Origin: a virus | Lineage: Duplodnaviria; Heunggongvirae; Uroviricota; Caudoviricetes | Reading direction: 5' to 3' (one strand) | Length of the DNA: 5,928 bases | Virus record (IMG/VR): IMGVR_UViG_2671181111_000001 | In this document: in pieces, positions 1 through 546 of the stretch | How the letters are laid out: every line of letters begins with the position of its first letter | Position numbering within the stretch: the stretch's first letter is position 1 | Translations under genes and position numbers: made by a program | The notes under the pieces: generated by a model | The model's input: the letters and a program-made list of their open reading frames with translations, nothing else | What the model was told of the DNA's origin: nothing | Databases searched by the model: none

Positions 1-147
1 AACCTGAATCTGGTTTTCAGGATTTACCGGGTCAGTGTCAATTTTTCCGATATAAATTTTGCCATTGGATACGGCTTTAAAAGAACGCGCCATAGTGAAG
101 AGTTGCGAAGGCATGCTGACCACAACATTTGCGGCGATATCTGACAT
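1..147 (-). CDS. Tailspike protein, N-terminal head-binding domain (5' part only; gene continues past window start)
   Basis: Reverse-complement of 1..147 translates to [49 protein letters not shown], which closely matches the P22 tailspike (gp9) N-terminus as I recall it (MTDITANVVVSNP...[30 protein letters not shown]). A GGAG Shine-Dalgarno sits 7 nt upstream of the ATG at 147..145 (minus-strand ctGGAGcaatgaaATG). Below the length cutoff of the supplied ORF track, so found by manual translation. Confidence 0.8.
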
Positions 148-268
148 TTCATTGCTCCAGACGAATGATATGATGCAATCATGATGTGATTGCATACCGA
201 AATGGCACTATTGAATATTTATCCAGTAGGTTACGATGCCATTCCACCCAACTGGTGAGGCATCAAGG
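148..268. promoter_or_regulatory. Divergent intergenic control region between tailspike start (minus) and mnt start (plus); expected to hold the mnt promoter and possibly a tailspike-proximal promoter
   Basis: 121-bp AT-rich non-coding gap flanked by divergent start codons, each with its own SD. Candidate plus-strand sigma70-like elements are TTGCAT (190..195) and an AT-rich -10-like stretch around 212..220 (tGaATATTT); both are weak matches, judged by eye. Confidence 0.4.
173..195. promoter_or_regulatory. Imperfect palindrome ATGCAATCA-tgatg-TGATTGCAT, candidate operator for a ribbon-helix-helix repressor
   Basis: Arms of 9 bp at 173..181 and 187..195 are exact reverse complements, with a 5-bp non-symmetric spacer. 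It overlaps the candidate -35 (TTGCAT, 190..195) of the mnt-proximal promoter. The size class is right for Arc/Mnt-type operators, but the sequence is unrelated to the P22 operators as I remember them. Confidence 0.35.
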
Positions 269-529
269 ATGTACAGCAAATACGACGAGGCACAGTTTCA
301 CTTGAGACTTCCGCATGAACTCCACGCGAAAATTAAACAGTGTGCGAAGATGAATAACAGTTCGCTGAACTCAGAGATAATTGCAGCGATTGAAGAATCA
401 TTGGCTAAACAAAGCTCTGCATCAGTTTACATTGACGATGCAGAGCGTATGGCAGAACAACAATCTGATATGGTTAAGAAAATTGTCTTTGATACGCTCA
501 AGGAGCTATATAAAAAAGACAGCAACTAA
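269..529 (+). CDS. mnt: Mnt-like ribbon-helix-helix transcriptional repressor (immI-type)
   Basis: Translation MYSKYDEAQFHLRLPHELHAKIKQCAKMNNSSLNSEIIAAIEESLAKQSSASVYIDDAERMAEQQSDMVKKIVFDTLKELYKKDSN (86 aa). The C-terminal half is close to P22 Mnt as I recall it (NDAERLADEQSELVKKMVFDTLKDLYKK), and the N-terminus carries the F-x-L-R-x-P beta-strand motif followed by the NSE helix typical of Arc/Mnt. Start chosen at ATG 269 (GAGG SD 8 nt upstream; matches P22 Mnt length); an in-frame ATG at 236 would add 11 residues. Stop TAA at 527..529. Confidence 0.8.
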   Translation: MYSKYDEAQFHLRLPHELHAKIKQCAKMNNSSLNSEIIAAIEESLAKQSSASVYIDDAERMAEQQSDMVKKIVFDTLKELYKKDSN

Positions 530-546
530 CCATCCGTGGCTTTCCG

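Follow-up and report, generated by a model that had tools for sequence, protein, structure and literature searches.

A minimal mnt-only ant moron and a predicted single Mnt operator beside the tailspike gene of a P22-like prophage

The viral DNA analysed here, a stretch of 5,928 nucleotides from the IMG/VR record IMGVR_UViG_2671181111_000001 (hereafter the window), was a P22-like prophage with 98.4% nucleotide identity to Shigella phage Sf101. We somewhat favour reading the region between its ejection and tailspike genes as a minimal mnt-only ant moron, in which Mnt would regulate its own synthesis through a site at 192-208 and the tailspike gene would be fed by read-through from the late operon. 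The layout itself was largely ordinary, namely a form of the P22 "ant moron" that is common and has been noted before. The reason for keeping an orphan mnt has been raised by Casjens and colleagues (2008 and 2020). The question of why a repressor was kept without its antirepressor could be narrowed here: an operator was predicted, it was the sole copy in the phage, Pant was gone, and classes of recognition strand and operator could be defined.

Organization of the locus

The 5' end of the tailspike gene, encoding the head-binding domain, occupied positions 1..147 of the minus strand with its ATG at 147. The 49-residue translation of 147..1 matched the Pfam family Head_binding (PF09008, E 4.6e-25), and this gene start was 88-95% identical in nucleotide sequence to the starts in Sf6, HK620, CUS-3 and epsilon34. 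A spacer of 121 bp (148-268) separated the tailspike ATG from the ATG of an mnt homolog of 86 amino acids on the plus strand (269..529), which was identified by matches to Pfam and to solved structures. The convergent stops of mnt and of the gene at the gene 16 position were 17 bp apart (530..546), and the terminator scan of this gap was blank. The latter gene (547..3282, minus strand) encoded an ejection protein with an SLT transglycosylase N-terminus (PF01464, E 4.6e-26) and a gp16-like body; a 119-aa block of 79% identity was common to this product and P22 gp16. The first-pass annotation, made from the letters of the window, had placed the tailspike ATG at 147 (minus strand), mnt at 269..529 (plus strand) and the stop of the gp16-like gene at 547 (minus strand), and every one of these coordinates was correct. 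The location between the gene 16 position and the tailspike gene, with mnt opposing the late operon, was a feature of immI that was present in the window.

The absence of arc, ant and sieA beside mnt, also reported by that annotation, was borne out. A survey of positions 1-546 revealed no Arc-, Ant- or SieA-like open reading frames of at least 30 aa, and P22 Ant had no tblastn match in the window. The possibility that arc or ant stood just outside the window was pursued in Sf101, where tblastn of P22 Arc, Ant and SieA against the whole genome gave no matches. The Arc operator (Oarc) sequence was absent from the spacer at 148-268, and neither sar nor any other Rfam family was matched in positions 1-700 at E values up to 1. 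The ant 5' end, with which sar would pair, was missing as well.

In P22, immI (mnt / Omnt / Pmnt-Pant / arc / sar / ant) occupied the same slot between genes 16 and 9. In both regions mnt ran counter to the late operon and encoded a protein of one family (an RHH domain followed by the Mnt coiled coil), and a palindromic operator containing CC-N5-GG immediately preceded the Pmnt -35 at a common register, whereas the window was without arc, ant, sar, sieA, orf59a, Pant and the ant terminator. The window had mnt without arc or ant between gene 16 and the tailspike gene, and this was also the case in ST64T, ST104, Para1, phage L, ST160, SE1 and Gally. In such mnt-only morons mnt was divergent from the tailspike gene, and the spacer of 121-146 bp (121 bp in the window) contained one dyad and Pmnt. 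In the ST64T-type morons, however, mnt and gene 16 were separated by one or two additional small genes (orf64 beside mnt in ST160, two genes in Gally), and the tailspike leader was of another type; the window, with only the 17-bp gap between mnt and the gp16-like gene, lacked the accompanying small gene (orf62/orf64). The Sf6 and APSE-type phages resembled the window in that their tailspike gene followed the ejection genes, and it relied on late-operon read-through as that of the window probably does, but they had no mnt and no moron.

The Mnt protein and its predicted operator

The mnt product was 46% identical to P22 Mnt. It contained the Arc RHH domain (PF03869, residues 7-49, E 2.5e-12) and the tetramerisation coiled coil Repressor_Mnt (PF11423, residues 57-82, E 3.4e-14), and it matched the P22 Mnt structures 1mnt (over residues 3-76, E 3.4e-17) and 1qey (E 1.7e-8). 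The pN/pS ratio of mnt was 0.18 among 60 unique alleles, indicating purifying selection, and nonsynonymous changes were scarce in codons 1-45, which encode the DNA-binding half. The gene was intact even in IS-riddled prophage remnants, and stop codons interrupted it in rare relatives (L075 and Citrobacter L020).

The dyad GCATACCGAAATGGCAC at 192..208, with its centre at 201 and a core of TACC (195-198) and GGCA (204-207), is predicted to be the Mnt binding site; that Mnt binds it is what we infer from the comparison of related loci. It adjoined the Pmnt -35 on its left, which was the position of Omnt in P22, and was separated from the tailspike ATG by approximately 45 bp. The consensus of 93 unique class-3 spacers was RCRTACC-N-AAA-Y-GGTAC, and its core was kept in at least 90 of them. 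Moreover, the dyad covaried with the N-terminal recognition strand of Mnt in four classes, each with its own dyad in the same register. The motif CC-N5-GG was common to the P22, ST160 and window classes, and the Phlomobacter class, represented by a single locus, had a dyad without it. The recognition strand was KYDEAQFHLRLP in the window versus ARDDPHFNFRMP in P22, and the operator of the window class was TACC-N5-GGTA versus GGTCCAC-C-GTGGACC in P22; the ST64T-type Mnt class (GRDDPQFNLRLP, operator AGACCAC-N-GTGGTCT) also differed from that of the window. These classes of recognition strand and operator could provide a natural specificity series for ribbon-helix-helix proteins.

No extended element of the spacer was less polymorphic than the operator (pi 0.009), and lower values were seen only in the 6-bp -35 and -10 hexamers. 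The diversity of the spacer as a whole was 0.016, compared with 0.052 at the third codon positions of mnt. There was one copy of TACC-N5-GGTA in the 38.7-kb Sf101 genome and one per related locus, and no second Mnt target (TACC-N5-GGTA or the 16-mer) was found elsewhere in Sf101. The Rha-family protein of Sf101 (pRha and ORF11CD3 domains) was considered as a hidden antirepressor target and rejected since no operator was found near it. Scanning IMG/VR with the operator 14-mer returned 32 loci with mnt and another 88 matches that were apparently due to chance; neither Arc nor Ant was found near any of these matches, a scan that was uninformative on operators at ant genes.

Transcription of mnt and of the tailspike gene

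Promoters were scored with a sigma-70 matrix, and the best scores in random 160-bp pieces of the window served as the background (median 7.5, 90th percentile 9.6). With the same matrix, Pant and Pmnt of P22 scored 16.3 and 14.3. The putative Pmnt of the window (211..237, plus strand; -35 TTGAAT at 211-216, 15-bp spacer, -10 TACGAT at 232-237) occupied the place of the annotated P22 Pmnt (TTGAGA-17-TATCAT). Its -10 was invariant (pi 0), and the pi of its -35 was 0.006. In type-B relatives the spacer of Pmnt was 17 bp long and the scores were 9.1-11; the window-type Pmnt with its 15-bp spacer scored about 7.5, the chance level of the matrix. This promoter would be weak on paper, the true start site of mnt is uncertain, and the call rests on positional homology and conservation. 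Further mnt-ward promoter-like matches, CTGACA-17-AATGAT and ATTTCA-17-TATGAT (141..174, plus strand), agreed with 9 of the 12 consensus positions and scored 9.0-9.4, just below the 90th percentile of the background. They occurred in the window-type spacer only and are of uncertain significance, and the letters CTGACA were forced by the Met-Ser codons of the tailspike gene. Downstream, a possible stem-loop in the mnt leader (CACC-CAACU-GGUG, 245..257, plus strand) adjoined the Shine-Dalgarno sequence GAGG (257-260) on its 5' side; its stem covaried, by inspection only, between the window (CACC/GGTG), ST160 (CACTT/AAGTG) and Buttiauxella L018 (GTCC/GGAC). A literature search for an effect of Mnt on Pmnt returned data on Arc only. 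Vershon and colleagues reportedly found in 1987 that Mnt stimulates Pmnt indirectly, through repression of Pant.

In the direction of the tailspike, the best match (ATGGCA-17-AATATT, 214..242, minus strand) scored 7.3, no better than chance. The -35 of the P22 Pant (TTGACA-17-TATATT; plus-strand TGTCAA) was missing from every arc-less spacer, and the best leftward scores in ST160, Gally, VSe13, JEP4, L018 and L019 were 5.3-7.3, at non-homologous positions. A Pant-grade leftward promoter was absent, and Pant had been lost; a weak or activator-dependent leftward promoter may escape consensus scoring. The first-pass annotation had argued that the retention of Mnt without an antirepressor implies a different target and that Mnt may gate a tailspike-proximal promoter. 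The first part stood insofar as the spacer at 148-268 held the predicted operator and the sole recognisable target was local. The second part was not supported, as the 7.3 of the best candidate compared with a chance median of 7.5 and with 16.3 for Pant of P22.

The match at 242..214 could still be a weak remnant of Pant, with a predicted start within the operator, from which the tailspike gene is driven directly, with Mnt at 192-208 silencing it in the lysogen. Such a geometry would mirror P22, where the Pant start falls within Omnt; the adjacency of operator and tailspike gene was kept in all class-2 and class-3 relatives, whatever flanked mnt on its other side, and a hairpin at 173-195 (see below) would fall near the 5' end of this transcript. 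We nevertheless consider the remnant unlikely, given a score at chance level for a 160-bp segment, the lack of a homologous match in the relatives and the loss of TTGACA from all the arc-less spacers. Moreover, we know of no selective rationale for silencing a cytoplasmic tailspike. No terminators were found on either strand in positions 1-700, and hence none on the way from gene 16 to the tailspike gene, so late-operon read-through would suffice for tailspike expression.

A hairpin in the tailspike leader

The tailspike leader had its Shine-Dalgarno sequence GGAG (plus-strand CTCC at 155-158) within 148..172 on the minus strand, as read directly from the sequence, and the motif TCTGGAGCA...ATG was kept in all relatives. 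Immediately upstream, the minus-strand RNA of 173..195 could fold into AUGCAAUCA-CAUCA-UGAUUGCAU, a hairpin with a 9-bp stem and a 5-nt loop (fold energy -9.6 kcal/mol, z -2.9). The perfect DNA palindrome that the window has at this place was a minority allele, present in 6 of 87 haplotypes. The other 81 carried C179, which gave a G.U pair in the minus-strand RNA and A.C on the plus strand. Transitions in the stem had arisen four times independently, and all of them kept wobble pairing on the minus strand but not on the plus strand; one change was compensatory. In addition, P22, epsilon34, ST160 and other genera had a non-homologous GC hairpin in the corresponding position, with alternation between GC/UG and GU/CG. 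The palindrome behaves as a hairpin of the RNA in the 5' UTR of the tailspike gene, and with it a conserved RNA hairpin ahead of P22-like tailspike genes turned up. That 173-195 serves Mnt or CI as a DNA operator was considered and rejected, since the perfect palindrome was rare, its variants paired only as G.U on the minus strand, and no second copy existed in Sf101. As an operator of Mnt specifically, it was absent in VSe13 and JEP4 despite the same Mnt recognition strand.

Changes private to this copy

Several positions set the window apart from its relatives. Its operator had C206 (right half-site GGCA), and every relative had T206; its Pmnt -35 was TTGAAT (G215A), and all the 86 other haplotypes had TTGAGT. 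Codon 359-361 of the window was AGT, resulting in R31S in Mnt; T361 was unique among 87 haplotypes, and the other 86 type-A haplotypes encoded Arg. This Arg of the N-x-R-S turn at the start of helix B, which corresponds to R28 of P22 Mnt and R31 of Arc, was kept by 260 of the 263 related loci. The window, with Ser instead (NNSSLN), was an outlier within its family. Finally, an ochre codon at 2569-2571 split the ejection-protein gene, with TAA in the window versus CAA in Sf101 and four other loci, and P22 gp16 had Gln at the same place. In contrast, Sf101 possessed the consensus operator (GGTA), the TTGAGT -35, Arg31 and an unbroken ejection gene (Sf101_0013, a single CDS of 911 aa, the same length as the ejection gene of the window). 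With T206C in the operator core, G215A in the -35 and R31S in Mnt, in a prophage that also has a nonsense codon in its ejection gene, the copy in the window seems to be impaired or re-tuned.

Possible functions of the orphan Mnt

In the self-regulation model that we favour, arc, ant, sar and the strong promoter Pant would have disappeared from an ancestral P22-type immI, leaving mnt, Pmnt and a single Mnt operator. Mnt, with its RHH domain and tetramerising coiled coil, would bind the dyad at 192-208 abutting the Pmnt -35 and thereby control its own synthesis from the prophage; we infer negative autoregulation, the opposite sign being possible. The tailspike gene would not be driven from the spacer and would presumably be transcribed by late-operon RNA polymerase that leaves gene 16 and reads antisense through mnt, giving a transcript whose 5' UTR bears the conserved stem-loop at 173-195. 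A further function of Mnt is probably missing from this account, since a purely self-regulating gene has no obvious reason to be under purifying selection.

A rival explanation is immunity in trans. It is established in P22 genetics that prophage Mnt represses ant of superinfecting P22, and an orphan Mnt could likewise act on the ant promoter of P22-like phages that superinfect or reside in the same cell, repressing it and shielding lysogeny from a foreign antirepressor. The purifying selection on mnt and its integrity in IS-riddled remnants would fit this role. However, the operator specificities of the orphan classes differed from that of the arc/ant-linked P22 class, no Arc or Ant homolog was seen with a class-3 dyad beside it, and the 14-mer scan of IMG/VR yielded mnt loci and chance matches only. 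Antirepressor-like genes in JEP4, Serratia L019 and approximately 50 IMG/VR loci were located 3' of mnt and had no second dyad. We view trans-immunity as improbable.

It is similarly doubtful that the orphan Mnt was re-purposed as a dedicated tailspike regulator, acting through a weak, non-consensus leftward promoter that starts in the operator or through a roadblock or collision that affects late transcripts. The constant unit in hundreds of mosaic prophages was Mnt, one operator and a structured tailspike 5' UTR. If the version with a leftward promoter were true, the hairpin at 173-195 would be a 5'-terminal stabiliser of the transcript, and under re-purposing in general the distinct operator classes would insulate co-resident prophages from each other.

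Control of tailspike dosage seems still harder to credit. Here, convergent transcription from Pmnt or a Mnt roadblock would reduce the fraction of late polymerases reaching the tailspike gene and tune its stoichiometry. An effect of the ant moron and its repressors on the read-through from PLate into gene 9 was suggested by Villafane et al. (2008; PMC2629481), and with mnt and gene 16 converging across the 17-bp gap without a terminator, collisions would be unavoidable when both promoters fire. Yet Sf6 and other P22-like phages assemble normally without the moron (PMC2629481), Pmnt with its 15-bp spacer looked weak here, and the sequence cannot tell a tuned effect from an accidental one.

The view that a deleted immI left mnt and its operator behind without a function, raised by the authors of the phage L study (PMC8022706) and agreeing with the unique mutations of the operator core, -35 and Arg31 in the window, with the nonsense codon in its ejection gene and with the mnt stop codons in L075 and Citrobacter L020, is very unlikely in the face of a population pN/pS of 0.18, a DNA-binding half nearly free of nonsynonymous change, a spacer three times less diverse than synonymous sites, and an operator and recognition strand that co-evolved into distinct classes. 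Decay may apply to this copy, not to the module.

Prevalence and published precedent

The module of mnt and its intergenic region was present in 281 of 5,426 complete E. coli genomes (about 5%) and on hundreds of IMG/VR contigs, and Sf101, IME10, ST160, Gally, VSe13 and JEP4 had the same layout. A comparison with the immI regions of other P22-like phages, proposed in the first-pass annotation, found that the mnt-only layout recurs and is real but not rare. "Mnt-only ant morons" have been described in ST64T, ST104 and Para1 (Villafane et al. 2008; PMC2629481), and phage L has only mnt as well (Zaworski et al. 2020; PMC8022706). Both the idea that Mnt may influence tailspike levels and the existence of mnt-only P22-like phages had already been published (PMC2629481; PMC8022706). 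The exact module is already in GenBank in a mis-annotated form: Sf101 and coliphage IME10 shared 98.4% and 96.8% nucleotide identity with the window over the segment and had an identical architecture, and the mnt homolog of Sf101 (orf14), annotated as a "putative chromosome segregation ATPase", is not discussed in the Sf101 paper.

Among the fetched loci, the dominant architecture was a leftward tailspike gene, a rightward mnt and a leftward gp16 gene. The neighbours on the other side of mnt varied widely, and the junction of mnt with the tailspike gene was the single constant feature; this tells against the self-regulation model in that it could mark a functional link instead of shared history.

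Gene content and distribution of the mnt locus

The window was a late-operon segment of the P22-like (Lederbergvirus) type. Positions 1-900 were 98.4% identical to the Shigella phage Sf101, and positions 1-537 were 96.8% identical to the coliphage IME10. On the minus strand, the tailspike gene started at 147 with a head-binding domain (PF09008, E 4.6e-25), and the ORF in the gene 16 position (547-3282, stop at 547) had a block 79% identical with P22 gp16. The mnt homolog (269..529, plus strand) encoded an 86-aa protein, in which a ribbon-helix-helix domain of the Arc type was followed by the Mnt C-terminal domain; the product was 46% identical to P22 Mnt and matched its solved structures 1mnt and 1qey. 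The spacers flanking this gene were 121 bp on the tailspike side and 17 bp on the gene 16 side. The ORFs, translations and domain matches confirmed all coordinates of the first-pass annotation. Its report that arc, ant and sieA were missing also held, as none of the three was found in the window or across the whole Sf101 genome.

This mnt-only architecture was already known in kind and is very common. A rightward mnt between leftward tailspike and gene 16, without arc or ant, was annotated or visible in Sf101, IME10, ST160, Gally, VSe13 and JEP4, and a rightward mnt between tailspike and gp16 was the commonest arrangement among the fetched loci. The mnt gene and spacer of the window were present in 281 of 5,426 complete E. 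coli genomes, mostly at 95-98% identity, next to many differing tailspikes and ejection genes, including IS-riddled remnants; IMG/VR held more than 400 relatives. The "ant morons" of ST64T, ST104 and Para1 were previously described as just mnt plus one unknown gene, and it was suggested that the ant moron and its repressors may influence PLate read-through into the tailspike (Villafane et al. 2008, PMC2629481). Phage L is a further published case (Zaworski et al. 2020, PMC8022706).

In a second architecture, the interval from gene 16 to the mnt 3' end contained antirepressor-like genes (KilA, Rha/Bro-N) that converged with mnt and were preceded by an Arc-like or CI-like gene. Loci of this kind with the same Mnt class as the window were JEP4 (3770-6430 of its locus), L019 (1072-2745) and about 50 IMG/VR loci (e.g., L125, L162, L168).

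The Sf101 paper did not mention the mnt homolog. Several GenBank/RefSeq records (P22, Sf101, ST160, SE1) labelled mnt as "putative chromosome segregation ATPase" or "partition protein ATPase", which looks like a propagated annotation error. The annotated CDS of Sf101_0014 (4236-4529 of the Sf101 locus) also begins 33 nt before the probable ATG.

Predicted Mnt operator

Spacers were aligned to the annotated P22 region containing the Mnt operator, the mnt promoter Pmnt and the ant promoter Pant. A dyad was located directly left of the Pmnt -35 (TTGnnn) in every phage aligned, and comparison across four classes revealed that it varied in step with the recognition strand at the Mnt N-terminus. The recognition strand ARDDPHFNFRMP accompanied the dyad AGGTCCAC-C-GTGGACCT in P22, epsilon34, Pluralibacter and Pectobacterium, all of which had arc; GRDDPQFNLRLP accompanied AGACCAC-N-GTGGTCT in ST160 and Gally, and ARDDPQFNFRMP accompanied ATATCAC-C-GTGATAT in Phlomobacter. 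The window, Sf101, IME10, VSe13, JEP4, Buttiauxella, Serratia and Citrobacter (class 3) combined (Y/T)(S/Y)K(Y/E)DEAQFHLRL with RTACC-N-AAA-Y-GGTAC. The P22, ST160 and window classes shared CC-N5-GG in register.

The TACC...GGTA core was retained in at least 90 of 93 unique class-3 spacers. With a nucleotide diversity (pi) of 0.009, the dyad was the least variable of the extended spacer elements (the spacer as a whole had 0.016 and third codon positions of mnt 0.052), and only the 6-bp Pmnt hexamers were lower (-35, 0.006; -10, 0). The Sf101 genome and each related locus contained a single copy. From its position, covariation with the recognition strand, conservation and single occurrence, we infer that Mnt binds at 192-208, centred on 201. 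The operator-Pmnt-mnt unit was intact but parted from the tailspike in some E. coli prophages, where an IS2 element (L012, 2187-3415) or an HNH endonuclease gene (L014, 2993-3502) had entered between the operator and the start of the tailspike gene.

Promoters and tailspike transcription

Promoters were scored with our own simple sigma-70 matrix, for which the best scores in random 160-bp window pieces had a median of 7.5, a 90th percentile of 9.6 and a maximum of 10.8. The P22 promoters Pant and Pmnt scored 16.3 and 14.3, and in arc-less phages whose hexamers were 17 bp apart, the rightward Pmnt in the homologous position scored 9.1-11.1. The Pmnt spacer of the window type was 15 bp (42 unique sequences); the Sf101-type Pmnt (TTGAGT-15-TACGAT) scored about 7.5, and that of the window (TTGAAT) ranked beneath the three best rightward matches, i.e., under 8.1. 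Thus, the assignment of the window-type Pmnt rests on positional homology and hexamer conservation rather than on score. An inverted repeat GATGCC...GGCATC (235-264, plus strand) bracketed the mnt leader and overlapped the Pmnt -10; for its outer arms to appear in a transcript, initiation would have to occur upstream of Pmnt.

The first-pass annotation proposed that Mnt may gate a tailspike-proximal promoter within 148..268. This gating is unsupported, and a weak promoter of this kind is unlikely. The best tailspike-ward matches scored 5.3-7.3 at positions that were not conserved, and the Pant -35 (TGTCAA, plus strand) was absent from all arc-less spacers. The best leftward match in the window (ATGGCA-17-AATATT, 242..214, minus strand) had a predicted start within the operator, like that of Pant, but its score of 7.3 was at chance level. 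No intrinsic terminator was predicted in 1-700, and late-operon polymerases that pass gene 16 could therefore traverse mnt in antisense and enter the tailspike gene. It is mainly because this read-through route is open that we did not accept the proposal.

Putative RNA stem-loop upstream of the tailspike gene

The perfect 9-N5-9 palindrome at 173-195 was a minority allele, since 81 of the 87 haplotypes of the window type had C179. On the minus-strand RNA, this substitution and four more stem transitions of independent origin each gave G.U, compared with A.C on the plus strand. One stem change was compensatory, and an Escherichia sp. relative had a double change from G-C to U-A. VSe13 and JEP4 lacked the palindrome despite having the same Mnt recognition strand and carried instead a GC-rich hairpin at equal distance from the tailspike Shine-Dalgarno. 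The same hairpin was located upstream of gene 9 in P22 (2085-2105 of its locus), epsilon34, ST160, Gally and prophages of other genera. In an alignment of 26 sequences, its adjacent pairs were GC+UG in some and GU+CG in others, and a further pair changed from GC to UA/AU.

In P22-like phages, a conserved stem-loop of two unrelated sequence types occupied one position, which preceded the tailspike Shine-Dalgarno by about 15-25 nt. Because G.U appeared only on the tailspike-sense strand and some pairs were compensatory, we conclude from these patterns that 173-195 is a putative RNA stem-loop in the tailspike 5' UTR, as far as we found undescribed in the literature, which may act in stability, processing or translation. 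A protein-binding DNA site was rejected on the strand-specific variation and the absence from VSe13 and JEP4. The location of the stem-loop, upstream of the operator-proximal region, agrees with the arrival of transcripts from further upstream.

Possible role of the orphan Mnt

The best-supported account, somewhat more likely than not, is that the orphan Mnt would regulate its own synthesis and the tailspike would be transcribed by read-through from the late operon. Its main weakness is that autoregulation alone does not account for purifying selection. Trans-immunity, where Mnt would act against foreign antirepressor promoters, is improbable: it is weakened by the distinct specificities of the orphan classes, no class-3 dyad was found beside any ant-like gene in the fetched loci or an IMG/VR scan, and the antirepressor-bearing loci of the window's Mnt class had no second Mnt dyad. 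It is rather doubtful that interference or a roadblock tunes tailspike dosage.

Equally doubtful is a plain remnant, plausible for the window copy alone. Among 60 unique alleles, mnt had a pN/pS of 0.18, and pairwise differences summed over the DNA-binding half (codons 1-45) came to 4,871 synonymous and 1,054 nonsynonymous. The spacer was more conserved than synonymous sites, and by inspection a small mnt-leader stem (inner stem 245-248/254-257) covaried between Mnt classes. On these sequence grounds, the module appears functional at the population level and not a decaying remnant.

Private changes in the window copy

Among 87 unique type-A (window-type) haplotypes, three changes were found only in the window: C206 turned the operator core GGTA into GGCA, A215 turned the Pmnt -35 TTGAGT into TTGAAT, and T361 replaced Mnt Arg31, present in 260 of 263 loci, with Ser. 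R31S likely weakens this Mnt because the equivalent residue in Arc, R31, belongs to a salt-bridge cluster (Arg31-Glu36-Arg40) at the helix B N-terminus. In addition, an ochre TAA at 2569-2571 (minus strand, within 547-3282) replaced a CAA (Gln) that was present in Sf101 and four other loci, P22 gp16 also having Gln. The Sf101 ejection-protein gene was one 911-aa CDS (SLT-transglycosylase/gp16-like); since the ochre divided the window protein into parts of 237 aa and about 673 aa, the prophage is probably defective. The three private hits, which all fell on functionally critical positions of the 380-bp module, may reflect, as judged from this one sequence, either a decaying module in a defective prophage or compensatory re-tuning of mnt expression. 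A mosaic boundary with Sf101 was located at about 5750-5928, where the last 178 nt held 114 of the 217 differences.
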